Program-made: the position numbers and the translations under genes | Assembly: GCA_011772755.1 (NCBI GenBank) | Contig: WVYX01000192.1 | Coordinates: 1,856 to 65,855 of the forward strand | Reading direction: 5' to 3' | Source: Gemmatimonadales bacterium | GTDB taxonomy: Bacteria; Gemmatimonadota; Gemmatimonadetes; Gemmatimonadales; GWC2-71-9 | Length of the DNA stretch: 64,000 nt | Notes under the pieces: generated by a model | What the model was told of the DNA's origin: nothing | What the model saw: only the letters and a program-made list of their open reading frames with translations | The model's database searches: none | Shown here: piece by piece, positions 10,732 to 40,383 of the stretch | How the letters are laid out: the number at the start of each line of letters is the position of its first letter | How positions within the stretch are numbered: position 1 is the stretch's first letter

Positions 10732-12260
10732 AAGCCCTCGCACTGCCCCGGGGTGATTGGCCCCTCATCGTCGGCGGAGCGATTCTGCTCTGCACAGCGT
10801 ATCCGCCTTTTCACCTCGTCGTTCCCTCCTTCGTGTGCCTCATCCCGGCAGTCTGGCTCATCTCCGCTGGAGCACTGGACCAGCGACCCCTCAGACGGCA
10901 CCTCGTACAGGGATTCTGGTTCGGTCTACTCTCGAACGGGTTGATCCTGTACTGGATGGTCGTTGCCCTGTGGCGTTTCACGAAGCTGTCGGCTCTGGGC
11001 TACGGCGCCACGATCGTCGTCCTCGGTCTGACCGGTGCTGCGCTCTTCGCGCTCACCGGTTGGGTGGCCCGCCGTACGAGCCTGAGCTTGCTGGTCGTCT
11101 TCCCGGTGCTCTGGACTATGGCGGAGTGGCTCATCGGTCACCTGAGCGATGTTCGTTTCCCGTGGCTCGGTCTGGGCACCTCCCTCAGCCGCGCTCCCAC
11201 CTTGGTGCAGATCGCGGACGTCGTGGGTGCACGGGGGCTTACACTGCTCTTGGCCGCTGCCAATACTGCGCTTGCGCTGGCGTGGCTGCGGCGGCATAAC
11301 CGACCGCAGGTGGTGGCGCTGGCCGGTGGCGTAGCTGCGGGCATCGTGTTCGCCCTTGGTTATGGCATCGTGCGTGAGCGCACGCTCTCATTGCGCCCGG
11401 TGGGCAACATCGTGGTGCTCCAACCGAACGTGGACTACGACGAGAAATGGCAGCCGGGCAACCGGGACGCGATTCTGCAGCGCGTGCTCGATATGTCAGC
11501 GCAGGCCATCGAACAGACCGAACCCGATCTCGTGGTGTGGCCCGAAGCGGCGGTGCCGGACTACTTCATTCGACGTCCGAACTGGGCGACCCGGATCGCT
11601 GAGCTGGCCCGGGAGAGCCGCACCCCACAGTTCGTGGGCGGGCTGGACGCGGAGCGGACTGCTGACGGGAGAATCGAGGTGTTCAATGCCGCGTTTCTGT
11701 TCGACTCCCTCGGCCGGTCGGACGCGTACCCGGTGTACCATAAGCGCTATCTGGTGCCGATTACCGAGCGGGTACCGTTCCTCCCCCCACGCTGGTTCCG
11801 GAGTCTGGAGCACTTCGGCGGGGCTACGCCGGGGCGCGAGACCCCGGTCTATCGCGTTGGCATTGGCCGCTTCGGGACGCTCATCTGCTACGAGTCGGCG
11901 TTCGAGGATCTGAGCCGCAGTTATCGGCGGCAGGGCGCCGACTTCCTCCTCAACATCACCAACGACGCGTGGTTCGGCCGGACGAGTGCACCGTATCAGC
12001 ACGCTGCCCATCTGGTGATGCGGGCGATCGAGAATCGAGTCGGCATTGCCCGTGCGGCCAACACCGGCATCTCGGAGTTCGTCGATCCCTTGGGGCGAGA
12101 GTATCGGCGGACAGGGTTGTACGTCAGGGCCGTCGAGAACCATGAGCTGGTCACCAGCGACGTGATGACCATCTACACCCGATGGGGCGACTGGGTTGGG
12201 ACCCTGAACCTGATGGCGACGCTGTTCTTGGTGGGGTATGCTCTGTGGCGGAAACGCTGA
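10728..12260 (+). CDS. lnt: Apolipoprotein N-acyltransferase
   Basis: Multi-helix N-terminal membrane domain followed by a CN-hydrolase domain with WPEAAVP and catalytic-Cys context LICYESAF. 510 aa. Confidence 0.88.
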   Translation: MKALALPRGDWPLIVGGAILLCTAYPPFHLVVPSFVCLIPAVWLISAGALDQRPLRRHLVQGFWFGLLSNGLILYWMVVALWRFTKLSALGYGATIVVLGLTGAALFALTGWVARRTSLSLLVVFPVLWTMAEWLIGHLSDVRFPWLGLGTSLSRAPTLVQIADVVGARGLTLLLAAANTALALAWLRRHNRPQVVALAGGVAAGIVFALGYGIVRERTLSLRPVGNIVVLQPNVDYDEKWQPGNRDAILQRVLDMSAQAIEQTEPDLVVWPEAAVPDYFIRRPNWATRIAELARESRTPQFVGGLDAERTADGRIEVFNAAFLFDSLGRSDAYPVYHKRYLVPITERVPFLPPRWFRSLEHFGGATPGRETPVYRVGIGRFGTLICYESAFEDLSRSYRRQGADFLLNITNDAWFGRTSAPYQHAAHLVMRAIENRVGIARAANTGISEFVDPLGREYRRTGLYVRAVENHELVTSDVMTIYTRWGDWVGTLNLMATLFLVGYALWRKR

Positions 12261-12271
12261 TACGCGTCGCT

Positions 12272-12342
12272 GTGGGGTGTGTGGCTTGCGGTTAGTGGTG
12301 TGAGATTAAAGTTGGGGCCGGAACCATCGGACCACACCCCAC
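12272..12342. terminator. Long-loop inverted repeat between convergent lnt and HD-GYP genes (possible bidirectional terminator)
   Basis: GTGGGGTGTG (12272-12281) is the exact reverse complement of CACACCCCAC (12333-12342). Both arms are G/T- or C/A-rich low complexity. No U-tract. Confidence 0.35.
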
Positions 12343-12361
12343 CAACCACTGACCCAAGCGG

Positions 12362-14314
12362 CTAGCTTGCTTCTTCGCTTTCCGCAGCCTTTTGAAACGC
12401 CTTCGCTTCCGAGAACAGTCTGAGGAGTGCGGGATCCAGCATCCCGGCTTCCGTCTCGTCCCGCAAGATATCGAGGGCTCGGGGCACCGGCACGGCATGT
12501 TTGTACGGTCGGTCGGATGCCGTCAGTGCGTCGAAGATGTCCGCGATCGTCATCATGCGCGTCTGGATGGGGATTCGCTCGGCCCCCACGCGCCGAGGGT
12601 AGCCCGATCCATCCAGCTTCTCGTGGTGTCCGAAGGCGATGTCAGGGACCGACCGGAGTTCCGGGGTCCACGGGATCTGCATGAGAAACCGATACGTATG
12701 CGTGACGTGGCTCTCGATCTCCTCTCGCTCACTCTGATCAAGACTACCCTTGCGAATGGAGAGGAACCGCACCTCGTCGCCGGTGAGGTACGGCTGCGAC
12801 TTCCCGTCGAGGTCCTCGAAGTACCGACTCGCATAGCGGCGTAGACTCTCGAAGCTCCCCTCCGGCAGGACCGTCGGTTCGTTCGATTCGAGCACCAGCC
12901 GCATGAACCGGTCCAGCTCCTCGATCTGCGTGCGATAGTCGGCTTCCAGGCGGCGGAGGAACTCCTCATAGCCTTGCCGGCCGTTGCGCTCCAGATACTG
13001 CGCGCGCTGGCGATGGAATTCGCTCTCTTGCGTGCGGCGGATGAACGCGAAGCGCTGCTTGATCAGCGCCAGGTCGGACGGGGGAAGCTTTTTCGCCTTG
13101 ACGAGCACCTGCTCCCGCACACCTACCTTCCCGAAGTCGTGGAGCAGACCGGCGTAGCGAATCTCACGGAGCTCTTCACGGGAATACCCGACGTGGCGAT
13201 ACGGTCCCTCTCGGGTGCGGTCCACCGCCTCGGCCAGCGCCACCGTCATGGACGCCACCCGTCCGGAGTGCCCGAACGTGGTGGGGTCCCGCTGCTCGAT
13301 GGCATAGACCGACGCTCGGACGAATCCCTCGAACAGTCGCTCGATGCCCTCATAGAGCTGGCTGTTCTCGATGGACACGGCGGCCTGCCCCGCCATGGCG
13401 GAGACTAGCTCGACGAGGCGGTGGGTGTACGGAATCACCTCCGCGTCAAAGTCCTCGGGGCTGGTGAGCTTGGCGTCACCGTGCCGCTTGCGGTTGATGA
13501 GCTGGAGCACCCCGATGACCGTGTCCTTGTGATCCTTCATCGGGATGGTGAGCATCGATTTTGAACGGTATCCGTACCTCTCATCAATCGAGCGGTTGAA
13601 CGTGTAGTCCACGTCTGGAGGAAGGAAATACACGTCGTCGATGACCAGGGGCTCACCGGTGGTCGCGGCACACCCTGCGATGCTCGTCGTGTCGAGGGGC
13701 ATCGTGTACTCCACCAGAGGTATGTCAGGCCGTGACGTGGTCTGCGACAGCTTGAACCGGAGGCGCCGTGGCTGGTCCTCGGGTGTCTCGACGAGATACA
13801 GGCTTGCCGCGTCGGAGGCGGTCAGTTCTAGCGCCTGTGACAGGATCAGCTCGAGCAGCGCGTCGTAGTCGCGCTCCGTGGAGAGCGCCATCCCGATCCG
13901 CGTGAGTTCCTTGATCTCCCTTGCACGGTATGCGGCTTCCTGGCGCGCGCGGGAGCTTTCGGCGCGGGCGGCCGCTTCACGGTATGCCGTACGGAGCGCG
14001 ACCAGGAGGTGCCGCGTACCGAAGGGCTGCGGAACGAATGCGCTGATCAGGTCGTCGGGCAGGGCGGTGGGGGCGTCTTTCTCGTCCGGGGCGCCGATTG
14101 CCACGATGGCACCACCTGCGCTCACGAACGTGCGGAGCTGGGCCGCGGGAAACGCCGAGCGACTAGCGGAATCCAGCACGAGCGTCGTTGGTACGTCGGC
14201 GACAGACAGGCCGTCCGCGGGTGTCACTTGTCGCGCGTCAACCGCTTCAGCCTCCAGGGCGGGGGCGATGGGATCCAGATCGAGGCTGGCTGGATGGAGC
14301 AGTACGTACTTCAT
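12362..14314 (-). CDS. HD-GYP-domain phosphodiesterase with N-terminal REC-like and central GAF-like regions
   Basis: HDFGKVGV and HHEKLDGSGYPR motifs in the C-terminal half. Central segment resembles GAF (SLYLVE ... MLTIPM ... GVLQLIN). ATG overlaps the mlaD stop (ATGA at 14311-14314). Confidence 0.85.
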   Translation of the reverse strand: MKYVLLHPASLDLDPIAPALEAEAVDARQVTPADGLSVADVPTTLVLDSASRSAFPAAQLRTFVSAGGAIVAIGAPDEKDAPTALPDDLISAFVPQPFGTRHLLVALRTAYREAAARAESSRARQEAAYRAREIKELTRIGMALSTERDYDALLELILSQALELTASDAASLYLVETPEDQPRRLRFKLSQTTSRPDIPLVEYTMPLDTTSIAGCAATTGEPLVIDDVYFLPPDVDYTFNRSIDERYGYRSKSMLTIPMKDHKDTVIGVLQLINRKRHGDAKLTSPEDFDAEVIPYTHRLVELVSAMAGQAAVSIENSQLYEGIERLFEGFVRASVYAIEQRDPTTFGHSGRVASMTVALAEAVDRTREGPYRHVGYSREELREIRYAGLLHDFGKVGVREQVLVKAKKLPPSDLALIKQRFAFIRRTQESEFHRQRAQYLERNGRQGYEEFLRRLEADYRTQIEELDRFMRLVLESNEPTVLPEGSFESLRRYASRYFEDLDGKSQPYLTGDEVRFLSIRKGSLDQSEREEIESHVTHTYRFLMQIPWTPELRSVPDIAFGHHEKLDGSGYPRRVGAERIPIQTRMMTIADIFDALTASDRPYKHAVPVPRALDILRDETEAGMLDPALLRLFSEAKAFQKAAESEEAS

Positions 14315-15168
14315 TTCGGCTGCTTCGCGGTATCGGGCGGCGGGGTGACGCCGGTGAGGATCCGCAGGGGACGTCGGCTGATCTTGTCCGCGAGGTTCTC
14401 GAGAATCACGGCGGAGCGGCTCAGGTTGGCGATCGTCTCATTGATGGCTTCTCGGTTCTCGCTGGCCATCCCGTAGGCGGTGGTGGCAAGGCTGTCCAGT
14501 TGGGCCAGCACGTCGCGAGTGAGCACGAGTGTCGCTACGAGGCTGTCGGCGATTGGCCCGACGCGGGGTTCGACCTGCGCCAGGATGCGGTCCGTCCGTT
14601 CCAGACTCTCCGTCAGGCGTTCGAGCACGGTTTCGAGCTGAGGCCGGGTGCTTGCCAGCAGGCTGCCGGTGGCGTCCACGGTCTGGGTCGTTCGGCTCAC
14701 GAGCTGTCGGGTTTCTGCCAGAGCGGCCACCAGGTCGCCACGCATTTCCGACGCGATCTGCGACAGCGCGTCCACCACGCTGGCGCGGCGCTGGGACCCG
14801 ATGGTATCGCCTGGCTGCAGGTCTGCCTGACCCGGCGCGGGTGGTGGCATGGTGAGCTGGATGACCGTAGGGCCCACCAAAGTCGGGGGTGGAGCGATTT
14901 CCGCTTTGATCTCTGCCGGCAGCCCCAGGCGCGTCCCGTCCGGAAACCGCTCTCGGATGGACAGCGTGGCGATGAATCCCAGGGTGTTAGTCGCTGAATC
15001 GAGTTTCGGGTTCACCTCGGTCACGCGTCCGATCTCCAGGCCCTGAAGCACCACGCGGGTATCCCGGGTGAGGCCTTCGGCCTCGCCGGCGCGCATGTAG
15101 ATCACATACCGGCCCTCCATCAGCCCGCTGGTCAACACCAGGGCGCCGATGATGATGCCCAGACTCAC
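14311..15168 (-). CDS. mlaD: MlaD/MCE-family substrate-binding protein
   Basis: N-terminal TM helix then MCE core (VVLQGLEIGRVTEV). The first canonical start is GTG at 15168, but the helix continues upstream to the preceding stop (see findings). Confidence 0.8.
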   Translation of the reverse strand: MSLGIIIGALVLTSGLMEGRYVIYMRAGEAEGLTRDTRVVLQGLEIGRVTEVNPKLDSATNTLGFIATLSIRERFPDGTRLGLPAEIKAEIAPPPTLVGPTVIQLTMPPPAPGQADLQPGDTIGSQRRASVVDALSQIASEMRGDLVAALAETRQLVSRTTQTVDATGSLLASTRPQLETVLERLTESLERTDRILAQVEPRVGPIADSLVATLVLTRDVLAQLDSLATTAYGMASENREAINETIANLSRSAVILENLADKISRRPLRILTGVTPPPDTAKQPK

Positions 15169-15222
15169 AAGGATGAACAGGCCGACCAGGAAATCGGTGC
15201 GTCCCGTGGGTTCCTCCCGAAC

Positions 15223-15897
15223 TCAGCCTTGCCGCCGCAGCTCACCCTTGGCGAGCCGGTAGCGGATCTCGATGCGGGGCTCCAATTGCTGGGGGACATA
15301 CTGCCCCGTCATGAACACCGTCCGCCTCGAACCTGCCTCAATTTCGCCACCTCGCGCAAGCTCCAGCACTTCGGCCGCGGCTCGGTTCGTGAGACCGTCG
15401 AACGGATCGGCCATGATTACCAGATCCGGGTCGAACGCCAGCGCCCGCGCCAAGGCCGCACGCCGTCGCTGCTCGTCGGTCGCTGACGCCGGCCTCAGAT
15501 CTGCCGCATCCACCAGTTGCAGCAGCGCTAGCATGATCCGTATCCGGCCGTCGATCTCCCGCTCCGTCATGTCGCTCCCGAAGCGCAGCGGTAGAGCGAT
15601 GTTGTCACGCAGGGAGAGGTTGTGCAACAGGCCGTCGCCGGCCGGAAGGTATCCCACCTGCCGGCGGAAGGCGAGCGTGGCACGCCGGGGCAACTTGGCG
15701 ACGTCCTGGCCGAACAGGAACACCCGGCCCGTGGTGGGCCGGTGGAGGGCCAGGGCGTATCCTGGTAGCGCGTCCACCCCGCTGGCTTCCGGCCCCACCA
15801 CCAGCACGGCACGGTGCTCGGGGACCTCCAATGTGGCGCCGCCAACGGCGATCCCGGGAAGGGAGATGTTCTCGAACTTGAGCGGCGCCGGCGTCAT
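15223..15897 (-). CDS. MlaF-like ABC nucleotide-binding-domain protein with degenerate catalytic motifs
   Basis: Collinear with ABC NBDs (LKFENISL ... RRQVGYL ... NIALPLRF ... RRRAALARALAFDPDLVIM). Walker A reads GPEASGVD, the signature reads ASATD, Walker B reads IMADPF, the H-loop reads MTGQ. ATG 15897 overlaps the mlaE stop (ATGA). Confidence 0.8.
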   Translation of the reverse strand: MTPAPLKFENISLPGIAVGGATLEVPEHRAVLVVGPEASGVDALPGYALALHRPTTGRVFLFGQDVAKLPRRATLAFRRQVGYLPAGDGLLHNLSLRDNIALPLRFGSDMTEREIDGRIRIMLALLQLVDAADLRPASATDEQRRRAALARALAFDPDLVIMADPFDGLTNRAAAEVLELARGGEIEAGSRRTVFMTGQYVPQQLEPRIEIRYRLAKGELRRQG

Positions 15898-16676
15898 GAC
15901 AGCAAGACGACGAAGAGGCCAGAGCAGATGAAGATAGCCACGATGCTGGCGACCACCGCCTGGCTCGAGGCAATGGGCACTTCGGTGGGAGAACCGCGGA
16001 TCGCCAGTCCCTGAAAACTGGGAATCATGCCCACGATGGTGCCGAACACCAGGCCCTTCACCACCGTGAGCCACACATCGCGAAACGTGAGGGAAGCGAG
16101 GACGATGTCAAAGTAGCGTGCGCTGGTCATCCCCGACGCGGCGGCGGCGAGCAGACCTGCGAAGATCGCCACGAGGTCGAAGAAGATGATCAAGCCCAAC
16201 AGCGAGAGGAGAGCCGCGCCGAAACGGGGAAGCACGTGATAGTGGAGGGGATCGATGCCCATGCCCTCAAGGGCGTTCATTTCGCCCATCACCTTGTTCG
16301 TGGCCAGCTCCGCCGCGATCGCCGTGCCCGAGCGCCCGGCCACGACCAGGGCTGTCAGCAGGGGACCGAGCTCCCGCACGATGGCCACGACCATGAGCCG
16401 CCCGATAAGCTCGGTGGCCCCCAGCCGCCCCAGCTCCCGAACGGCCTGGGAGATCACCAGGAAGCTCAGGATCGATGAGAGAACGATGATCAGGGGGACG
16501 GCTTGGAGGGCCGTGAACCACACCTGCCGCAGGAGAACGCGCAGGGCGACGCGGCGGCCTGCCCTCGGCAGCCAGCGCCACGATCCGAGCGTGAGAACGA
16601 AGAAGCGCGCCAGCGCCCCGAGCCAGGCGATTGAGCGCGCTACTCCTTGTCCGAGTGCCGCAACCGGCGCTGTCAC
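15894..16676 (-). CDS. mlaE: MlaE-family ABC transporter permease
   Basis: 260 aa polytopic protein with the conserved VRELGPLLTALVVAGRSGTAIAAELATNKV block typical of MlaE/Ttg2B permeases. GTG start. Confidence 0.88.
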   Translation of the reverse strand: MTAPVAALGQGVARSIAWLGALARFFVLTLGSWRWLPRAGRRVALRVLLRQVWFTALQAVPLIIVLSSILSFLVISQAVRELGRLGATELIGRLMVVAIVRELGPLLTALVVAGRSGTAIAAELATNKVMGEMNALEGMGIDPLHYHVLPRFGAALLSLLGLIIFFDLVAIFAGLLAAAASGMTSARYFDIVLASLTFRDVWLTVVKGLVFGTIVGMIPSFQGLAIRGSPTEVPIASSQAVVASIVAIFICSGLFVVLLS

Positions 16677-16688
16677 GCGCCTATGTTA

Positions 16689-17390
16689 CTATCCCTGCTG
16701 GATCTGCTTCAAGGCCTCCTGCGCCTCGGTGTACTCCGGGAACTCCCGCGTCACCTGGGTGAATAGCTCCACCGCCCGGTCGGTATCACCCCGGTCGGCG
16801 TACAGCAACGCCTTGCTGTAAAGCCGGAGCGCTTCCGGCGCGATCCGTTCGGACCGCTGCTGTCGCTGCTGGAAGGCCTGCCGGGCCAGGGGCGGCAGAT
16901 CGAGCCCGCGGGTCAGGTCGTTGGCGAGGTCCACGACGATGGAGAACATCTTGTCCCGGTTGTCACGCCCGCGCTCGACCTTGATGATCTCGCTGGTTTC
17001 GACATCCACGACGCGCGCGGTGAGGGTGAAGTCGCCGTACCAGTCTATGAACGTCCCAAACACCATGTACCTGGCGCCCACGAGTTTACCCACCCGGGCT
17101 GCGGTGCTCGGGTCCACCGTGCCTGAAGCCCCCAGCTCCAACTCCCGGACCAAGTCGGCAATCCGGCCGCGCTCGATGACGCGGAGCTGGTCGTTGACCG
17201 CAAACTCCGTCAGGAGGAGCTGTTGGATGCCCACGGTGAGCGCTTCGAAGTCTTCCTTGTCCTGACCGTACGAACCGCCGTCCTCGAACGGCATCACGGC
17301 CACGCCGGGCCGAGTGTCCTGCGCGGTCACGACCCGTGGTGCCACGAGCCCTGCGACCAGGGTCACGGCCAAAATCGAACGCCAGCGCAT
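16689..17390 (-). CDS. Secreted TolB-N/CsgG-like domain protein with C-terminal TPR-like helices
   Basis: Signal peptide (ILAVTLVAGLVAPRVVTAQD), VAVMPFEDGG ... ARYMVFGTF ... pattern of the TolB-N/CsgG-like fold, then TPR-like ALRLYSKALLYADRGDTDRAVELF. ATG 17390 is preceded by GGAGGAAAGG. Alternative ATG at 17405. Confidence 0.65.
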   Translation of the reverse strand: MRWRSILAVTLVAGLVAPRVVTAQDTRPGVAVMPFEDGGSYGQDKEDFEALTVGIQQLLLTEFAVNDQLRVIERGRIADLVRELELGASGTVDPSTAARVGKLVGARYMVFGTFIDWYGDFTLTARVVDVETSEIIKVERGRDNRDKMFSIVVDLANDLTRGLDLPPLARQAFQQRQQRSERIAPEALRLYSKALLYADRGDTDRAVELFTQVTREFPEYTEAQEALKQIQQG

Positions 17391-17404
17391 AGACCTTTCC
17401 TCCA

Positions 17405-18280
17405 TCACAGAGTCAGTTGCATCCCTTCGGTTGCGGCAAACACGTCGAGCGAATGCCCTGCCTCCTCCGCTTCGTTGCGAGTTGCCTCGAGCAGATTGTC
17501 CATAACGGCATCGTCGTGTTCCGGCCGGTGGTGAAACAGGAGCAGCTGCTTCACCCCAGCCTCCCCGGCCAACGCCACCGCCTCGGACGGTGTCGAATGA
17601 CCCCAGCCACGGTGTTGATCCAGATCTCCCGGCGCGTACATCGCGTCGTGGATGAGCACCTGCACCCCCGCGAGGAACTGCACAAACTCGGTGCGCCATG
17701 TCGGTGCCACGTCGTAGCTGCCGCCCGAGCCCAGCTCGTTGTCGGTTACGTATGCCATGCTGGCCCCGCCATCCGTCGGAGTCAGTCGGTAGCCGAGCGT
17801 GTTCCCAGGGTGGCGAAGCCGAATGGCTTCGACTGCAAACCCGTCGATCTCAAACGCTCCGGGGCCGACGTGCGCGACAGTCAGCTCGGCCGATAGTTGA
17901 TCCAGAGGCACCGGGAACACCACCGGGTGCATCTGCTGCCGGAGGATCACCCCGAGATCCACGTCGCCCTGTTTCGACCCCCAGATCCGCACCTCGTTCC
18001 CCTTGCCGAAGAACGGTGCAAAGAACGGCAATCCCTGAATGTGATCCCAGTGCGTGTGGCTCAGGAGCAGGTCGAGCTGCAGGCTGCCGTTGCCTAGCTT
18101 GACCAACTGCTTACCGAGGAGGCGGATACCGGTACCCGCATCCAGGATGACGAGGCGTTCCCCGGCGCCACTCCCGCACTGGACAGCCACGCACGGGGTG
18201 TTGCCACCGTACCGGGTGGTCAGCGCGCCAGGCGTAGGGACCGAGCCCCGGGCACCCCAGATGGTTATCGTGTACGCCAT
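17405..18280 (-). CDS. MBL-fold metallo-hydrolase
   Basis: WGARGSVPTPG ... YGGNTPC N-terminal block and the HTHWDH metal motif. 291 aa. Confidence 0.8.
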   Translation of the reverse strand: MAYTITIWGARGSVPTPGALTTRYGGNTPCVAVQCGSGAGERLVILDAGTGIRLLGKQLVKLGNGSLQLDLLLSHTHWDHIQGLPFFAPFFGKGNEVRIWGSKQGDVDLGVILRQQMHPVVFPVPLDQLSAELTVAHVGPGAFEIDGFAVEAIRLRHPGNTLGYRLTPTDGGASMAYVTDNELGSGGSYDVAPTWRTEFVQFLAGVQVLIHDAMYAPGDLDQHRGWGHSTPSEAVALAGEAGVKQLLLFHHRPEHDDAVMDNLLEATRNEAEEAGHSLDVFAATEGMQLTL

Positions 18281-18372
18281 GCACCCGATTTCGGCGCCAT
18301 CCCCGCCAAGCTACGGGGGGCCCCGAAGCTCGAGCAAGGCAACGTGTCACGGCGGGTCGGTGACATGGCTCA

Positions 18373-19071
18373 CTACAGGCCGGCGAGTGCCTCGAGGCCC
18401 ACCCGGTCGACGATGGCTATGTCCTTGCGGGACACTTCGATGAGGCCCCGGTCGGCGAACTCACGGATGGTCCGCGAGACGGTCTCCCGGCTGGAGCCGA
18501 TCATCTGGGCGATGGTATGGTGCGTCACCTTGCGGGGGATGGTCTTTCCATCGTTCTCATCCGCCAGCTCGATCAGGAGGCGGGCCACCCGACCGTTCAC
18601 GTCTAGCAGTACTAGGCCACCGATCTTGTCATCGGCACGCCGCAGGCGTCGCGACAGCGCCCGGAGCAGTCCCAGGGCGATCCGCGGTGTCTCTTCGAGG
18701 CACTGGCGAAAGTCCTCTCGCCGCAGCACCAGGAGGTTCGACTCCTCCATGGCGATGACGTGGGCTGATCGTGGCTGATCGTCGATCAGCGACATCTCTC
18801 CAAAGAAATCTCCGTCCCTCAACATGGACAGAATGACCTCTCGTCCGTCCTCGCCAATCAGGACTACCTTCACCTGGCCACTGAGGACCACGTAGAGGGC
18901 ATCGCCTGGGTCGTCTTCGAACAGGATGACGCTGTTCTTGGGGTAGCTCTTTTCGCGGGCCGCTTCGGTGATGTGCGCGATCTCCGCGTCGCTCAGCTGG
19001 GTGAACAGCGGGATCTGCCGCAGTCGCTTGGTCACGGACATGGGCGCATCAGCTGGGGAGCTGTCTGGCAT
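18373..19071 (-). CDS. Crp/Fnr-family transcriptional regulator (cNMP-binding domain + HTH)
   Basis: cNMP-binding fold (FGEMSLID ... RSAHVIA) followed by the HTH THHTIAQMIGSSRETVSRTIREF. 232 aa. Confidence 0.85.
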   Translation of the reverse strand: MPDSSPADAPMSVTKRLRQIPLFTQLSDAEIAHITEAAREKSYPKNSVILFEDDPGDALYVVLSGQVKVVLIGEDGREVILSMLRDGDFFGEMSLIDDQPRSAHVIAMEESNLLVLRREDFRQCLEETPRIALGLLRALSRRLRRADDKIGGLVLLDVNGRVARLLIELADENDGKTIPRKVTHHTIAQMIGSSRETVSRTIREFADRGLIEVSRKDIAIVDRVGLEALAGL

Positions 19072-19131
19072 GGTCAGGCCCTAGCTTACTCCTGGACCCC
19101 GGCTGTGTCAAATCAGAACCGAGTCGTCCGC

Positions 19132-19161
19132 TTGCCCCCAAGTCTCTGTCGCCATTATATT
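19132..19161 (+). promoter_or_regulatory. Candidate promoter for rpmE-prfA-prmC
   Basis: TTGCCC (19132-19137), 18-nt spacer, TATATT (19156-19161), the only AT-rich hexamer in the gap. TATATTTC also resembles the TAnnTTTG -7 element used by short FCB-type RpoD. A small hairpin CCGCC-TCTTTG-GGCGG follows at 19164-19179. Confidence 0.35.
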
Positions 19162-19214
19162 TCCGCCTCTTTGGGCGGGCTCAGTCCGGGGCAATGTCAC
19201 ATGGAGCTTAGCCG

Positions 19215-19433
19215 GTGAAAGCGGGTATTCATCCCACCTACCAGCGTGCCGTCGTCCAGTGCGCGTGTGGTAACACTTTTGAGACGCGATCGACTCTCCC
19301 AGCGATCCACGTGGAGATCTGTGCGCGTTGCCACCCGTTCTTTACCGGGCGGCAGAAGCTGGTCGATACGGCGGGTCGCGTGGAGCGTTTCCGGCAGCGC
19401 TACGGAGCCGGCGCCGAGCAGGACGGAGAGTAG
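19215..19433 (+). CDS. rpmE: 50S ribosomal protein L31
   Basis: MKAGIHPTY ... CACGN ... [10 protein letters not shown] zinc-ribbon signature. 72 aa. GTG start. Confidence 0.95.
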
Positions 19434-19439
19434 GTAGGC

Positions 19440-20498
19440 ATGGAAGCGCGGCTCGAAGCCGCGCTTGCTCGCGCGGCCGAAGTCGAACGTGAACTGGCCG
19501 AGCCAGCCACCGCACGCGATCCCGCCAGGCTCAGGGCCCTAGGCCGCGAGCACGCCCGCCTCGAGCACATCCGTCGGATTGCCGCTCAATACCACAAGCT
19601 GAAGTGCGAGCGTGACCAGTCTCAGGAATTGGCACGCGACCCCGACCCGGCGCTGGCGGAGCTCGCCCGGGCGGACCTGGAGCGGCTCACGCCGGAAGTC
19701 GCGGCACTGGAGGCGCAGCTCACTGACCTGCTCGTGCCACGGGATCCCCTGGACGGTCGCGACACGATCATGGAGATCCGTGCCGGGACTGGGGGGGACG
19801 AGGCTGCTCTCTTCGCTGCCGACCTACTGCGGATGTACACGCGGTACGCAGAGCGCCGCGGATGGACCGTGGCCATGGTTGCCTTGTCGGAGGGGAACGT
19901 CGGGGGGGTCAAGGAGGCGATCTTCAAGGTGCAGGGGGAAGCGGCCTACGGCCGGCTCCGCCATGAGTCCGGCGTCCACCGGGTTCAGCGGGTGCCCGTG
20001 ACGGAGGCTCAGGGTCGCATCCACACGTCCGCCGCCACGGTGGCGGTACTGCCGGAAGCGGAGGAAGTGGACGTGCGGGTCGAGGAAAAGGACCTCAAGA
20101 TCGACGTGTTCCGATCGTCGGGGCCAGGCGGCCAGAGCGTGAATACCACCGACAGTGCGGTGCGGATCACGCACCTACCCACCGGCCTCGTGGTGCACTG
20201 CCAGGATCAGAAGTCGCAGCTCCAGAACAAGCTCCGGGCGCTAGAGGTGTTGCGGGCGCGGCTGTTGGATCGGATGCTCGCCGAGCAGGAAACCGAGCGC
20301 GCACGGGAACGGCGGGCGATGGTGGGCACCGGTGATCGGTCGGCCAAGATCCGGACCTACAACTTCCCACAGAATCGGGTCACCGACCACCGTATCAACC
20401 TCACCGTGCATCGGCTGGACGAGATCCTGGATGGGGAGCTCGACCGGATCATCGACGTGCTCAGGCTCGCCTACCAAGGTGAGCGGGCGTCGACTTGA
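19440..20498 (+). CDS. prfA: Peptide chain release factor 1
   Basis: [20 protein letters not shown] (GGQ loop) and [14 protein letters not shown] (PxT tripeptide region, P-V-T here). 352 aa. Confidence 0.95.
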
Positions 20499-34882: not shown

Positions 34883-37800
34883 TCAGAATGTGGGGCCCAA
34901 GCTCAACGTCCAGTACGATCCTTGCTCCTCCCGGGAGATGGGCTTGGAGTAGTCCGCCCGGACGATCATGAAGCCCAGCAGGTTGCCGCGGATGGAGATG
35001 CCCCAGCTTGCCAGGGGCTGGCGCACCAGATCTTTGTTGGCGTCCGGGGCGCGGCTGAAGACGACGTCCACTCCGTCCCGCCAGGCCAACCCGACGTCGA
35101 AAAAGACCGCTCCCTCGATGGGGGGGAGGCCGATCGGAGCGAACCCGAGGGCGACATTCCGCAGCAGTGGGAACCGCAGTTCTGCGTTGAACACGGCAAC
35201 GCGGGAGCCGATCAGCTGATCCAGGGCGCCGCACCCCGAGAACGATCCGCTGGCATCGCTGCGGCATTCGTTGTTCCTCAGGGAGCCCGAGGTGTAGCCC
35301 CGCAGCAACTCAGGTGTTCCCAAGAAGATTGGGAACTGGTTGCTGTCACGGCCGAATCGTCCAAAGAACAGGAACCGCGACGCGAAGGTGAAGGGGCCGA
35401 ACAGGTGGTCGTATCGCCGATAGTCACCCAACAGTTGGTGGAACGTCCAGTCACCGAAGGCGGGGGCATACTCGAACCGGCTCCGCCGCCCCATGAACGG
35501 GCCGACCCAGAGCGAGACGGAATTGTCGAAGACCAGTGCCAGGGACGGTTGGAAGTAGTTGATCCCACCCAGCCCGCGGTCCTGCCGATCCCGGTCGAGC
35601 ACCAGCATGGACGCCGGGTCGAATGTGTCGATGATGTCCACCGCCGCCCGCGACACGTTGGCGGCACGGATGCCAAGCTCGACTCGGCGGAACCGGTTGA
35701 ACGGCCGGAGAGCGTCCGCAAACGCCTCCCGCACGATGAACCGCTCCAGCGTGGTGGTGAGAGTCGGATTACCCACCGAGTCGAGCCCGAACTCGCTCTG
35801 CGTGAAGAAGAAATAGGGTGTCTGCGAGATGCCTACCGCCCAGTTAATCCGGCGGCTCAGGTTGGCGTAGATCGCGAGAACCTGCGCCTCCTCGATGCGC
35901 CCGTTCACCTGTCCGGCCGCCAGCACCCGATGGTTCCCCAGCATGTCGGAGAGGGAGATTGCACTGCCGCCGAAGAAGCCGCTGCCGAAGTTGTCCCGTA
36001 CGTATCCGACCGACGGCTGAACCACGTAGTCTACGGACAGCTTGGACGAGTAATCTCGGAACATGAACGCGAGCGAGTCAGGCAGCTCGAAGGCAGCGCT
36101 GTCCAGCAGTGCTTTGACCGAAATCGGAGCAGGCGACGAGTCGGTCGCCTCGGGCGTACTCGCGGATGTACGGAGGCCTGCCGCGGAGCGGTACAACGAC
36201 CGACGGCCGGTGCTGGGGCGCGCGGCTGCTCCTGGGGGTTCTCCGCGTCGGATAGCGCCAGCGCTGTCCCCGGGGGCGGGCGTCGCTACCGGCGTGTATT
36301 GCAGAGCCGCCCGGTCCTGCCCCGGTGGCGCCGCAGTGTCCGGACGATCGGAGATTAGGGACGCCACGATCGGGCGGGGCGCCGACTCGTCGTAGGGACG
36401 ACCCTTGAGGCTCCGGGGATTGTCGGCGGCGTAGACGTTGAACTCACCCTTCTCGTAGTACGTGAACACCAGTCGGTCGGCTGTTCGCGCCCAGGAGATA
36501 GCCGGCGAGAGGGGCGTGATACCTGAGACGCCCGTGAAAACGTCGGTGAGCTGATACGTCTCCCTGTCGTCGAAGTCGAAGAGGAACAGGTTCGGAATGC
36601 CGGTCCGATCAGACAGGAATGCGATCGACCGCCCGTCGGGTCCCCACTGAGGATTCGTGTTGTTGCCCGACATCCGATCAAGGACGTCGATGCTATGGCC
36701 TTGGAGGTCGTAGAGTCCGATGCTCAACGGTCCTACCTGGAGCGAGCGGAGATCCGTGTGGGGCCCACGGTCCGTGGCAAACGCGATCGTGCGGCCGTCT
36801 GGTGACCATGACGGGTGCAGATCAGCAAAGCGATCGTTGGTCAGCCGGCGCAGGTTAGCGCCGTCGGCATCTACGATGAAGAGATCCGAGAATCCCCCAT
36901 CGTAGCCGGTGAAGACGAGTTGCGTCCCGTCAGGGGACCACGATGGCGTCGTCACCCCGTGCAACGGCACTTCAATCCGTTTGTGCACACGAGTCCGCTG
37001 CATGTCGAAGATGACGAGATCGTCCACGCCGGCATGCTTGACCGCGATGGCGAAGAACTGTCCGTCCGGGGACCAGGCGCCTGCTGAGTTCAGGAAGCGG
37101 AGGCTCTCGAAGTCACTGCTGAAGGCACTCTTGATCAGCCGCTTCTTGACCAAGCCGGTCTCCGCGTCGGCCAGGTACAGATCGATGAAGAACGAGTTGC
37201 CTTCGGAGAGATAGGCAATGTCCTGCCCGTCGGGGGAGATCACCGGCGATATGTGCAGGGTCCCGTTGGACCTCCGCCTGGTGAGCACGGGGTGGGAGAA
37301 CTGACGTGCCTGCTGGAGGTCCGCGATCTGCGGGAGATACGTCCGCTGCACCGCGTCTTGCCATTGCTCCACCAAGTCTTCCAGGGTCACCCCCAGAGCG
37401 CGACGAAAGGCCCCTTGCACACCGGATATGGATGCCGCGTGTAGAATCTCGCCCACGGCTTCATCACCCCACCGTTCGCCGATGTATGACCACAGCGCAT
37501 GGCCGAAACGATACGGGGAGTAACGGGGGTCCCAAGTCAGCTGCTCGATGCTCGGCAGCCCGCCCTCGAGCGCGGCGTCCCGCACCCACATCGCCGTCTG
37601 CGGGTCGATCGGTCCCAGCGACAGGTACTCAGCCATTCCCTCCATGAACCACAGCGGCGGGCTCACTGAGATGAGGCGTTGAATGCCGGCGCCTACCTGA
37701 CCACGGGCGAATACGTCGAACTGGAACTGGTGGACGATTTCGTGCTGGAGAACGTGCTCGAACTCTGCGTACGAGCCCGTGAAGGGCAGTAGCACGCGGT

Positions 37801-38146
37801 GTCGGAAAGGCTCGGTGACGCCGCCCGTACCCTCGCCGATAGTGGTGATATTGTTCTGTTGGAACTCGCTATGTGACGCGAACAGGATGATTGGCTGGCG
37901 CTCGCGGTATCGATGATTGAGGATGCGTGACAGCCGACCGTAGGCCCGCTCCGCCATGCGTGCCCCATCCAGCGCCGCCTCCCGTTCACCTGCGTAGAAG
38001 TACACGTCGAAGTGCTCCGTCTCGATTACAGCAAAGTCGAGATGGCGGTACTGGACCTTGTTTCGGCCGAAGTACTGCGCCGGCAACGGCGTGGTGAGTA
38101 ACACCGTTGCGCACACGGCCAGTTCGACGATTCGACGCATCGGCAC
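34883..38146 (-). CDS. Omp85-family outer-membrane beta-barrel fused to an HExxH peptidase-like domain and a PD40/TolB-type beta-propeller
   Basis: Signal peptide. HEIVH at residues 135-139. Five W/SPDG PD40 repeats (SPVISPDGQ, AWSPDGQ, PSWSPDGT, PSWSPDGR, QWGPDGR). P/A/S-rich linker. C-terminal surface-antigen barrel (FFDVGLAW ... ADYSKP ... LSLGPTF, terminal Phe). Confidence 0.8.
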   Translation of the reverse strand: MPMRRIVELAVCATVLLTTPLPAQYFGRNKVQYRHLDFAVIETEHFDVYFYAGEREAALDGARMAERAYGRLSRILNHRYRERQPIILFASHSEFQQNNITTIGEGTGGVTEPFRHRVLLPFTGSYAEFEHVLQHEIVHQFQFDVFARGQVGAGIQRLISVSPPLWFMEGMAEYLSLGPIDPQTAMWVRDAALEGGLPSIEQLTWDPRYSPYRFGHALWSYIGERWGDEAVGEILHAASISGVQGAFRRALGVTLEDLVEQWQDAVQRTYLPQIADLQQARQFSHPVLTRRRSNGTLHISPVISPDGQDIAYLSEGNSFFIDLYLADAETGLVKKRLIKSAFSSDFESLRFLNSAGAWSPDGQFFAIAVKHAGVDDLVIFDMQRTRVHKRIEVPLHGVTTPSWSPDGTQLVFTGYDGGFSDLFIVDADGANLRRLTNDRFADLHPSWSPDGRTIAFATDRGPHTDLRSLQVGPLSIGLYDLQGHSIDVLDRMSGNNTNPQWGPDGRSIAFLSDRTGIPNLFLFDFDDRETYQLTDVFTGVSGITPLSPAISWARTADRLVFTYYEKGEFNVYAADNPRSLKGRPYDESAPRPIVASLISDRPDTAAPPGQDRAALQYTPVATPAPGDSAGAIRRGEPPGAAARPSTGRRSLYRSAAGLRTSASTPEATDSSPAPISVKALLDSAAFELPDSLAFMFRDYSSKLSVDYVVQPSVGYVRDNFGSGFFGGSAISLSDMLGNHRVLAAGQVNGRIEEAQVLAIYANLSRRINWAVGISQTPYFFFTQSEFGLDSVGNPTLTTTLERFIVREAFADALRPFNRFRRVELGIRAANVSRAAVDIIDTFDPASMLVLDRDRQDRGLGGINYFQPSLALVFDNSVSLWVGPFMGRRSRFEYAPAFGDWTFHQLLGDYRRYDHLFGPFTFASRFLFFGRFGRDSNQFPIFLGTPELLRGYTSGSLRNNECRSDASGSFSGCGALDQLIGSRVAVFNAELRFPLLRNVALGFAPIGLPPIEGAVFFDVGLAWRDGVDVVFSRAPDANKDLVRQPLASWGISIRGNLLGFMIVRADYSKPISREEQGSYWTLSLGPTF

Positions 38147-38499: not shown

Positions 38500-40383
38500 C
38501 TATCTTGTCGTATCGAGTTCTGCTGCGAATTGTTCCGCGGCTTCCGAAGGTGCTGCGTCCTCAACCTGGTAAAATATACCCCATGCCCCTGGTCCAGTGT
38601 GCACACCGAGCGCGGCCGTCACTTCACTGACGTGGCACTCGCGCGGCGAATAGCCGCGCACCAGCTCCTCCTTCAGAGCCTGTGCCAGCTCCGGGACGCC
38701 GGCATGCGCCACTCCCAGGCGCAGTACCGCGGGTCGGGGCGTGAGCCGGCGATCGAGATGCTCGAGTACCCGCGGGACCAGGGCGTCCCGACCGCGGACT
38801 CGGTCCAGCGGCGCGATCCGTCCCTCCGGCGTCACCTCGAGGATCGGCTTGATGTGCAGCAGACCACCGAGCCAGGCACGTCCCCGGCTCACCCGACCCG
38901 AGCGGAGCAGGTTCTCGAACGTATCTACCGTGAAGAAGCCCCCAGACTGGTCGCGCACGCGGTTCAGTTCCCGCACGATCTCCGCCACGCTCCAGCCTGC
39001 ATCGACCAGCTCTACCGCGCGCAACGCGAGCATCCCGAGCCCGTAGGACGCCGACCGCGAGTCCACAATGGTCACTGAGTTGCCCTGGCTGCAGGCCTGA
39101 GTTGCTGCCTGCGCTGACGCCAGCGTGCCGGACAGCTGACCGGCTATGAACAGGCCGAGGACCTCATCTGCACTTGAGCAAGCGTCTTGAAACGCGTTGA
39201 CGAAAGCACCTGGCGGAGGCTGTGAGGTGGTGAAGATCTCGCCCCCCTCCTGCATCCGGCGGTAGAGTTCCTCTCCCTGGATATCGACCCGGTCGGCGTA
39301 GGTCCGCTCGCCAGCGATGACTTGGAGAGGGACCACCACCATGCCGTGGACATCCAGCAGACGATCCGGTAGGTCGCAGGAGGAATCCACGACGATGGCG
39401 ATTCGGCGACGTGCGGCGTGCAACGCACGGTGCTGCTCCCGGATGTCGTCCGCTTTAGTGGTTTCAATGGCGCCCCAAGTGGCCGCGAGGTCGAAGACCT
39501 GGTGGGGGGCGTCCGTGTGCACGTGGACCTTCAGCAGGTCGTCGGTTGCAAGCACGACGATCGAGCCGCCGAGGCGCCGTAGCTGCGTTCGGATCTCGAT
39601 GCTGGGTGGGAAGTTGCTCCCCCGAACCAGCACTTCCGTGCAGTAGCCGTAATCGCGCTCAGCTGCGACCTCCGCAAGTGCCGCAGCATCCGGAACGGTG
39701 TACGCAATCGGCTCCGTGGCTGGTAGGATCGGGTCGCCCTCCATCAGGCGGACGACACCCTCGAGTACCCGGATGAATGCCTTGGCGCCGGCATCGACCA
39801 CGCCTGATTCCTTCAGCACGGCGAGGAGCTCGGGAGTGCGTCTCAGAGAGACCTCACCCCGTGCCAGGACGTGGTGCATCATCTCCTGCAGGTTCGTCGT
39901 GCGCTCTGCCGCCCACTCTGCGGCGGTAGCAACGTCCCGGGAGACTGTGAGGATCGTGCCTTCCACGGGCTCGTCCAGCGAGCGGTAGAGCCGCTCGGCT
40001 CCCCTCCGCATGGCGCGGGCCACATCCTCGGGTGCCGCGGTCTCGAGATCTCCCAGGGCTTCGCGGAAGCCCAGCAGGAACTGGGAAAGGAGCATGCCCG
40101 AGTTGCCACGTGCCCCGAATACGCAGGCCTCCGCCATCGCCTTTGTCACTACGGGGAGCTTCGCCGTCTCCAGAGCACGCACTGCCTCGGCTGTAGCGCG
40201 CAGGGTCATGGCGAAGTTCGTGCCAGTATCTCCGTCGGGGACCGGGAACACGTTGATGCGGTTGAGTTCCTCGCGCCAGGCGTCCACCCAGTCGGCGGCG
40301 GCGAGGAGCGACCGGCGGAGACGGACGCCGTCGAGGTAGGCGATCCCGACAGCGGCGTGACTCACTATTCTTTCACCACCCAC
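38500..40383 (-). CDS. DAK2 (DhaL-like) domain protein fused to a DegV-type fatty-acid-binding domain (FakA/YloV-like)
   Basis: N-terminal NVFPVPDGDTGTN Dak2 motif, middle GYCTEVLV ... LKVHVHTD module, C-terminal IAIVVDSSCDLP ... TTSQPPPGAF DegV signature. Alternative GTG start at 40365 overlaps the rplI stop by 1 nt. Confidence 0.8.
   Translation of the reverse strand: MGGERIVSHAAVGIAYLDGVRLRRSLLAAADWVDAWREELNRINVFPVPDGDTGTNFAMTLRATAEAVRALETAKLPVVTKAMAEACVFGARGNSGMLLSQFLLGFREALGDLETAAPEDVARAMRRGAERLYRSLDEPVEGTILTVSRDVATAAEWAAERTTNLQEMMHHVLARGEVSLRRTPELLAVLKESGVVDAGAKAFIRVLEGVVRLMEGDPILPATEPIAYTVPDAAALAEVAAERDYGYCTEVLVRGSNFPPSIEIRTQLRRLGGSIVVLATDDLLKVHVHTDAPHQVFDLAATWGAIETTKADDIREQHRALHAARRRIAIVVDSSCDLPDRLLDVHGMVVVPLQVIAGERTYADRVDIQGEELYRRMQEGGEIFTTSQPPPGAFVNAFQDACSSADEVLGLFIAGQLSGTLASAQAATQACSQGNSVTIVDSRSASYGLGMLALRAVELVDAGWSVAEIVRELNRVRDQSGGFFTVDTFENLLRSGRVSRGRAWLGGLLHIKPILEVTPEGRIAPLDRVRGRDALVPRVLEHLDRRLTPRPAVLRLGVAHAGVPELAQALKEELVRGYSPRECHVSEVTAALGVHTGPGAWGIFYQVEDAAPSEAAEQFAAELDTTR

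Follow-up and report, generated by a model that had tools for sequence, protein, structure and literature searches.

The MlaFEDB complex is the model for MCE-type lipid transport, and both the direction of that transport and the part played in it by ATP are still debated. In CFTR, TAP1/2 and TM287/288 only one of the two composite ATP sites has degenerated, and ATP is still hydrolysed at the other, and PqiABC, LetAB and SbmA/BacA transport lipids or peptides without an ATP-binding cassette (ABC) ATPase, which gives a precedent for operation that is not driven by ATP. The closest described relatives of the protein considered here are MlaF, known from Escherichia coli, Acinetobacter baumannii and Pseudomonas aeruginosa (PDB 6xbd, 7d06 and 7ch8), and MceG (Mkl; PDB 8fed), the shared ATPase of the actinobacterial Mce lipid importers, which is active, is encoded outside the mce operons and is common to several of them. 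The genes mlaEFD form the ancestral minimal Mla cluster according to Grasekamp et al. (2023; PMC10665443), who also mention 'the uncertainty of MlaF annotations'. Here we describe psF, a working name for the pseudo-MlaF encoded in a 64-kb stretch of DNA from a Gemmatimonadales bacterium (contig WVYX01000192.1; the whole stretch is called the window below). We consider it probable that psF descends from MlaF, is conserved in a catalytically dead state and provides an MlaE–MlaD (MCE) inner-membrane complex with its cognate cytoplasmic subunit. We found no earlier description in the literature of a pseudo-ATPase conserved as a subunit in an ABC-type system of the Mla/MCE kind, and full-text searches returned no account of a degenerate MlaF, nor of Mla in Gemmatimonadota.

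The psF gene is an open reading frame (ORF) of 224 codons on the minus strand (15223..15897), running from an ATG at 15897 to a TGA at 15223; a preliminary description of this DNA had the ORF right, and only its strand has to be corrected to minus. The product matches the Pfam family PF00005 (ABC_tran) with 39.3 bits (E-value 1.2e-9; gathering cut-off 25) and so belongs to it, and a phmmer search of PDB sequences gives E-values of about 1e-17 to FtsE, MlaF, LolD and MetN. Its residues 22-223 align by HMMER with residues 33-231 of A. baumannii MlaF (7d06_B), a full-length match that, together with the ABC fold, supports the earlier statement that the 224-aa protein follows MlaF-type nucleotide-binding domains (NBDs) along its length. 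An AlphaFold2 model built on 120 homologues has a predicted local distance difference test score of 92.6 and a predicted template-modelling (TM) score of 0.90, and Foldseek aligns it to solved NBDs with TM scores of 0.82-0.85 and E-values of 7e-19 to 1e-17, the matches including MlaF (7d06_B and 6xbd_I) and mycobacterial MceG (8fed_H) and also LolD and MetN. As modelled, psF is a complete ABC NBD fold with a RecA-like core and a helical subdomain, and its likeness to NBDs is far beyond chance.

The fold is shared with MlaF, to which psF aligns over the full length (TM scores of 0.84-0.85), and with MceG (0.84), likewise the NBD of an MCE transporter. Two sequence features are of MlaF type, namely an LxxNLSLxDNVALPL block and the residues 'PF' directly after Walker B (DPF in psF, with Phe166 invariant; DEPF in MlaF), where most NBDs have DEPT; the structural blocks NIALPLRF and RRRAALARALAFDPDLV, which the preliminary description had regarded as retained, are both present. 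Descent of psF from MlaF is supported by this 'PF' and by the position of the gene. Unlike MlaF, which has 269 residues, psF stops at 224, near residue 231 of the 273-aa 7d06_B, and is without the C-terminal handshake. It scores 64.2 bits against the NCBIfam MlaF equivalog NF008809 (PRK11831), whose cut-off is 441, and falls short of every other NBD equivalog model in NCBIfam as well. In public databases members of the family go under the names 'MlaF ATPase subunit' and 'ATP-binding cassette domain-containing protein'.

Each of the motifs by which an ABC ATPase binds and hydrolyses ATP is replaced. In the alignment to 7d06_B the Walker A sequence GPSGTGKT of MlaF becomes GPEASGVD in psF (residues 35-42), with Val41 in place of the lysine and Asp42 in place of the threonine; the Q-loop GMLFQS becomes GYLPAG, with Ala86 for the glutamine; the signature LSGGM becomes ATDEQ (residues 139-143); Walker B changes from LIMYDEPF to LVIMADPF, with Ala163 for the aspartate and Asp164 for the catalytic glutamate; and the H-loop SHD becomes GQY, with Gln199 for the histidine. 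The A-loop aromatic position is, by inspection, Leu13 and is aromatic in no member of the family. The preliminary description had reported a Walker A (GPEASGVD) with neither lysine nor serine or threonine, a degenerate Q-loop (GYLPA), a Walker B (VIMADPF) without the catalytic glutamate and an H-loop (MTGQ) without its histidine, and the alignment to MlaF agrees with it at all four; it was also right that the signature is degenerate, but the register that it gave, ASATD, is two residues out, the true equivalent being ATDEQ, which leaves the conclusion unaffected. When the alignment check that it proposed was carried across the whole protein, no intact copy of Walker A or of Walker B turned up elsewhere in psF. 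Judged on its sequence, psF fails all of the sequence-testable defining features of an ABC ATPase as a functional class. In E. coli, MlaF carrying either K47A or E170Q singly fails to complement (Kolich et al., 2020, PMC7367683). Because psF has the equivalents of both changes, and more, it should be unable to run an ATP power stroke, and because both Walker A and the signature are lost a psF homodimer would be without any competent ATP site. Degeneration of the NBD is tolerated and conserved, as it is in CFTR, TAP1/2 and TM287/288, but unlike those proteins psF has lost both halves of both sites.

The degenerate state is common to a whole family. The protein database holds 1192 clusters with a match to psF at an E-value of 1e-5 or below; the top 120 are 58-78% identical to psF and 222-234 aa long, and those source names that give a taxon are all Gemmatimonadales or Gemmatimonadetes. 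With one genome scanned per species, at least 318 genomes encode a psF relative, and the best 80 of these 318, on which all of the locus work is based, are without exception Gemmatimonadota, one complete chromosome (CP070716.1, locus L002) being among them; BEIJ01000001.1 and CAWFNY010000001.1 are further examples from complete or near-complete psF carriers. The family is phylum-wide in Gemmatimonadota and forms a compact, distinct clade; of the 1.84 billion cluster representatives covered by an exhaustive profile search, only about three stand for full-length clusters, at 50% identity, that belong to it. Motif conservation was counted over 119 homologues of the psF subfamily and 120-121 of a second, deep subfamily of about 242 aa (L080, P0123), which came up when L080, the most divergent member, was used as query; its names are again only those of Gemmatimonadales metagenome-assembled genomes, and no Gemmatimonas species is among the best 120 matches to the L080 protein. 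A GK[ST] Walker A occurs in 0/119 and 0/121 members of the two subfamilies, not one of the 240 homologues has the Walker A lysine, and 80/80 species-level loci are degenerate in the ATP motifs.

The replacement residues are themselves fixed. Within the psF family the P-loop keeps G35, E37 (101/119), S39 (114/119), G40 (118/119), V41 and D/G/E42. The former signature keeps P136, [TN]140, [ED]141, E142 (116/119) and R144-146, with the consensus [TN][ED]E[QED] and with S.G[QEM] in 0/121. The Walker B region reads [EAD]163-x-P165-F166, position 164 being any of D/Q/R/H/E/A/S and 'DE' being found in 0/121. Ala86 of the Q-loop is present in 109/119 and Gln199 of the H-loop in 105/119, T197-G198-Q199 being fixed. 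The second subfamily has GDEDSGVG (100/120), NEEDRRR, LEAPFD and TAQD at the corresponding places, so that both subfamilies share a single degenerate pattern, GxExSGV[DG], N/T-E/D-E-x-RRR, hhhh[EAD]x-PF and T-G/A-Q, and the loss of the motifs is therefore older than the split between them.

Selection on the gene was estimated as the ratio of nonsynonymous to synonymous substitution (dN/dS; simple Nei–Gojobori method, NG86) over the window and its nine closest loci, and in this high-G+C lineage the values are to be relied on only for comparison among neighbouring genes: psF has 0.18, against 0.13 for MlaE, 0.23 for MlaD, 0.17 for the HD-GYP protein encoded downstream, 0.14 for the metallo-beta-lactamase (MBL)-fold hydrolase, 0.14 for the Crp-type regulator and 0.18 for the CsgG-like protein. 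By definition psF is a pseudoenzyme: it has lost its catalytic residues and kept its fold, and purifying selection constrains it to the same degree as its neighbours. The preliminary description had called it a conserved pseudo-ATPase scaffold and not a decaying gene, which the fixed replacements in 119 + 120 homologues and 80 genomes confirm, as does the comparison of orthologues and selection that it recommended (0.18 for psF, 0.13-0.23 for the neighbours). The idea that psF is a decaying pseudogene or an artefact of annotation is scarcely credible. Two of the 80 loci appear frameshifted, psF lying in two overlapping pieces in different frames (L078:10001-10638 and L079:2679-3325), which may reflect assembly error or a rare real loss; against decay are the intact ORF, whose length is constant across at least 78 species-level genomes and over 1000 protein clusters, the dN/dS value, the confident structural model and the conserved, coupled start.

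Conservation is uneven along the protein. The mean frequency of the commonest residue is 0.71 over the whole of psF, 0.90 over residues 78-108 (RR-x-V-GYLPAGDGLL-x-NLSL-x-DNVALPLRFGS), 0.95 over residues 144-157 (RRRAALARALAFDP), and 0.72-0.79 in the former catalytic loops, which are thus above the protein average; these loops have taken on a new and mostly acidic state that is now fixed, and have not been freed from constraint. Replacement residues held more strongly than mere loss of constraint would predict might point to a non-canonical binder, in which the remodelled pocket would take up a nucleotide or another small ligand, for example a metal lying between E37 and D42 of the acidic P-loop and D/E141 and E142 of the likewise acidic former signature, and dimerization would be regulated without ATP hydrolysis. 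We regard such a function as very improbable, since the canonical positions offer no lysine, serine or threonine, glutamine, catalytic base or histidine, the A-loop is never aromatic, the position of the catalytic glutamate varies freely (D/Q/R/H/E/A/S) and an acidic P-loop should repel phosphates.

The genes on either side make psF the MlaF of its cluster by position. The mlaE gene (15894..16676, minus strand) encodes an apparently canonical 260-aa permease, which matches P. aeruginosa MlaE in PDB with an E-value of 2.6e-22 and conserves the RELGP region, and mlaD (14311..15168, minus strand) encodes a protein that has a transmembrane helix, a single MCE domain and about 150 aa of helical C-terminal region. 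Their Pfam scores, 192.6 bits for MlaE and 32 bits for MlaD/MCE, are above the gathering cut-offs and identify an Mla/MCE system; MlaD has in addition a weak Mce4_CUP1 match in Pfam and 65 bits to Mtu_fam_mce in NCBIfam. With its long helical C-terminal region this MlaD is Mce-like, a point of resemblance to the Mce systems, but psF differs from MceG in being encoded in the operon and in being dead. The order mlaE-psF-mlaD is present in the window and in all of the 80 loci that are long enough, and is that of the ancestral E-F-D cluster. The TGA of mlaE and the ATG of psF share the sequence ATGA (15894-15897), and among the 75 loci used for statistics of start and stop overlap the psF start lies at -4/-1 to the mlaE stop in 50, and most of the remaining loci have a candidate start at -4. 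Translational coupling of psF to mlaE, which the preliminary description had proposed from the window, is borne out. Proteobacterial MlaF has an MlaB partner and intact ATP motifs, whereas psF has neither: Pfam searches of the window and synteny of the loci show no STAS/MlaB gene in the psF operon.

We propose that psF would still dock on the coupling helix of MlaE and would stabilize or cap an MlaE2-MlaD6 assembly. The strongly conserved residues 78-108 span the Q-loop and the beginning of the helical subdomain, a part of canonical NBDs that makes up the groove into which the coupling helix of the membrane subunit fits. In E. coli the MlaE-MlaF contact is made by the coupling helix between TM2 and TM3, and nucleotide-free MlaFEDB adopts an outward-open form in which an unbroken hydrophobic path leads from the MlaE pocket through the MlaD pore (Coudray et al., 2020, PMC7790496). 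On the proposed scheme psF would deliver no ATP power stroke and the complex would not be energized at this subunit. Since psF would run no such stroke, the complex probably rests in the nucleotide-free state, and by analogy with E. coli MlaFEDB it probably stays outward-open when psF is bound. It could then act as an equilibrative, non-energized lipid conduit, or as a tether, through the long, Mce-like helical MlaD. The ATP-independent MCE systems Pqi and Let offer a loose analogy for a conduit of this kind; they and SbmA/BacA have no NBD and have either another membrane subunit (PqiA/LetA) or no MCE component, whereas the psF system keeps MlaE and a subunit of NBD fold.

Several points weigh against this interpretation. 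E. coli MlaF needs both the C-terminal handshake and MlaB for stable binding to MlaE (PMC7367683), and psF has neither; the association of psF with MlaE is itself inferred. Nucleotide binding in a non-canonical pocket of psF may be compatible with its sequence, and the two loci with psF in pieces have already been mentioned. A strict coupling of mlaD to the HD-GYP gene, described below, is unexplained by a pure-conduit model. Finally, the two metagenome-assembled genomes RBG_16_66_8 and SG8_28 possess other clusters with a recognized MlaF (PMC10665443), and since the surveyed Gemmatimonadetes have several MlaE/MlaD pairs, some of them with MlaF, a canonical MlaF could act in trans.

Such an MlaF, supplied by another Mla cluster of the same genome, would energize MlaE, and the role left to psF would be that of a placeholder or assembly factor, of a partner in a heterodimer, or of a negative regulator that competes for the coupling helix. 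The survey of Grasekamp et al. provides the main support: Gemmatimonadetes in its supplementary table have no MlaA, MlaB or MlaC and 1-4 MlaE and 1-3 MlaD per genome, and in RBG_16_66_8 and SG8_28 there are, apart from the MlaF clusters, E-x-D triples in which the E and D accessions are two apart and the middle gene is not called MlaF (PMC10665443). We infer that these unrecognized middle genes are probably psF, and that the survey seemingly missed psF as MlaF in some genomes. MceG, which is common to Mce1 and Mce4 and needed for their stability, sets a precedent for a shared subunit; it also stabilizes its transporter, and its Walker B mutants neither transport nor stabilize (PMC9947336). On the other side, psF is coupled to mlaE in most loci, and would be made beside its presumed partner and in step with it, and a psF/MlaF heterodimer would be crippled at both composite ATP sites because psF is without both Walker A and signature. 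No intact NBD is at hand either. A six-frame scan that required Walker A and signature found no canonical ABC NBD in the 64-kb window, returning only SMC and thymidylate kinase, and none within ±10 kb of psF in the 80 loci, one unrelated NBD gene in L029 aside; Pfam found no ABC protein, MlaA, MlaB or MlaC among 30 further ORFs of the window. The closest canonical single-domain NBD, P0166, proved to be from Planctomycetota; that none of its database matches shares a contig with the psF loci is uninformative here. We therefore think energization in trans rather unlikely, and the reading of psF as the cognate subunit of its own MlaE-MlaD complex the better one. Clusters of MlaE and MlaD without any NBD may exist beside the pseudo-NBD type: for Gemmatimonas aurantiaca T-27 the survey lists two MlaE/MlaD pairs, each of adjacent accessions and with no MlaF in synteny, and Lentisphaerae genomes have adjacent E-D pairs without F (PMC10665443).

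The gene downstream of mlaD encodes a 650-aa protein with REC-like, GAF and HD-GYP domains (12362..14314, minus strand; Pfam HD_5, GAF and HD). The mlaD stop overlaps its start as [A/G]TGA in 72/75 loci (14311-14314 in the window), followed by a conserved MKYxLLH, an unusually strict coupling of an MCE protein with a protein of cyclic-dinucleotide phosphodiesterase type. This arrangement suggests that MlaE-psF-MlaD could be a sensor of envelope lipids in which psF relays the state of MlaE to the REC-like/GAF/HD-GYP protein, linking the lipids of the outer membrane to cyclic-dinucleotide signalling. Besides the overlap and the conserved start, the HD-GYP protein keeps an intact HHEKLDGSGYP motif, the same block of genes holds a Crp-family regulator that binds cyclic nucleoside monophosphates (cNMP) and an MBL hydrolase weakly similar to cyclic-nucleotide phosphodiesterases, and the above-average conservation of the former catalytic loops of psF would fit a new interaction surface. 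Any physical contact between the psF complex and the HD-GYP protein is, however, hypothetical. The N-terminal domain of the latter, which has no significant match in Pfam, is receiver-like and not STAS/MlaB-like: profile searches of PDB find the pseudo-receiver of CpaE (E-value 6e-4), a response-regulator/HD protein (0.003) and HupR, and the notion that this N-terminus is an MlaB-like domain was rejected on that result. Moreover, the other clusters with degenerate NBDs that were examined (L081-L088) have no HD-GYP neighbour, and synteny within one phylum may partly reflect low rearrangement. On balance a sensor of this sort is unlikely, and we retain the reading of psF as a catalytically dead subunit of an inner-membrane lipid complex, with the junction at mlaD as a feature that this reading leaves unexplained.

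The remaining genes of the block, all on the minus strand, lie upstream of mlaE. A gene at 16689..17390, with an ATG at 17390, encodes a secreted CsgG/LpoB-like and TPR protein of about 233 aa (Pfam CsgG, 52.8 bits, and TPR) that has the signal peptide MRWRSILAVTLVAGLVAPRVVTA, its own start and a ribosome-binding site, its stop lying 13 nt before mlaE in the window. It is preceded by a gene for an MBL-fold hydrolase (17405..18280) that is RNase Z-like or cyclic-nucleotide-phosphodiesterase-like, matching NCBIfam RNase_Z with 74.7 bits and, weakly and over its full length, cyc_nuc_deg_phdiest with an E-value of 1e-10, both under the cut-offs, and by one for a Crp/Fnr-family cNMP-binding regulator (18373..19071; NCBIfam CRP, E-value 1.9e-40, also under the cut-off). 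In every locus long enough the order is fixed as Crp, MBL, CsgG/LpoB-like plus TPR, MlaE, psF, MlaD and REC-like/GAF/HD-GYP, always on a single strand and divergent from rpmE-prfA, with successive median gaps of 89, 14, 7, -4, about 52 and -4 nt; operon order and spacing are thus fixed across Gemmatimonadota. The Crp gene is possibly transcribed separately, as about 89 nt lie between it and the MBL gene. No riboswitch or other RNA was found when 12000-19600 was scanned with Rfam, the one match having an E-value of 0.98.

The start of mlaD needs revision, since it probably lies upstream of the GTG at 15168, near 15207. In-frame codons ahead of this GTG (about 15168-15222, minus strand) complete the N-terminal transmembrane helix (TGRTDFLVGLFILV) that is seen in relatives, and in distant relatives mlaD has an ATG, GTG or TTG 4-6 codons ahead of a conserved (R/Q)xDF. 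The clade of the window (the window, L001-L007 and L009) has ACG at that position, with GGGAGGAA 5 nt upstream in the window, and mlaD of this clade may start at the near-cognate ACG. A fusion of psF and MlaD by readthrough was also considered, the two being in the same frame and 5 codons apart in the window, and was rejected; because the frames differ in L001-L005 such a fusion is not conserved.

Degenerate NBDs at the MlaF position are found outside the psF family as well. Our survey covered 82 single-domain cluster representatives, those that lie closest to the psF profile, a sample biased by the degenerate query. Many of them (among P0151-P0270) are without the signature, the catalytic glutamate and the H-loop histidine and have Walker A, and more than a dozen also lack the Walker A lysine. 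P0140, P0220 and P0234 are partly or fully degenerate NBDs encoded between mlaE and mlaD in other organisms (contexts L081-L083 and L085-L088); of four such examples looked up these are 3/3 of those with a long enough contig, that of the fourth, P0161, being too short. They and their relatives lack the signature, the catalytic glutamate and the H-loop, and in some the Walker A lysine is gone too. They differ from psF in belonging to other sequence families with other replacement residues, in having no HD-GYP neighbour and in their taxa, which are non-Gemmatimonadota or unassigned. In a neighbour-joining tree of NBDs, which was made with the motif columns left out and without support values and is suggestive only, psF is monophyletic and the other degenerate NBDs fall into several separate multi-cluster clades. 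Because separate degenerate clades sit between mlaE and mlaD, loss of the catalytic motifs in the MlaF position seems to be recurrent across unrelated lineages. Tandem two-NBD MlaF-like proteins (P0127 and others) were considered as special relatives of psF and rejected, their high profile rank resulting from two intact domains adding up.

The window otherwise contains ordinary diderm housekeeping genes (Lnt, LolA, Omp85-family, SMC and others), and a few further ORFs, all on the minus strand, may be mentioned. One of 627 aa (38500-40383) combines Dak2, a FakA-like middle domain and DegV, and seems to be a fusion of fatty-acid kinase subunit A and a fatty-acid-binding subunit of DegV/FakB type. 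Another of 603 aa (58198-60009) is a dCache-HAMP-adenylate/guanylate cyclase, a further gene of cyclic-nucleotide signalling. A 1087-aa protein (34883-38146) has PD40/beta-propeller repeats and a C-terminal Omp85-family barrel, and a 712-aa ORF (55704-57842) with a third-position G+C fraction of 0.84 has only low-complexity, coiled-coil-type Pfam matches under the cut-offs.

Gemmatimonadota thus offer a natural experiment, a selected MlaE/MlaD machine whose only operon-encoded NBD is predicted to be unable to use ATP. Because databases label psF as an ATPase, inferences about transport and metabolism for Gemmatimonadota and for lineages with similar genes may be overstated. We put forward tentatively, as a proposal that may well prove wrong, that the pseudo-NBD marks a class of MlaE/MCE systems that work without ATP as passive trans-envelope lipid conduits or as sensors of lipid state, that in Gemmatimonadota the co-translated REC-like/GAF/HD-GYP protein would connect such a sensor to cyclic-dinucleotide signalling, and that, given the recurrence of similar dead NBDs between mlaE and mlaD in unrelated lineages, ATP-independent Mla-like systems would be widespread and overlooked. 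Should the psF complex still move lipids, MlaE/MCE function would not depend intrinsically on ATP; should it move none, the ABC scaffold would have been re-used, for example for structure or signalling.

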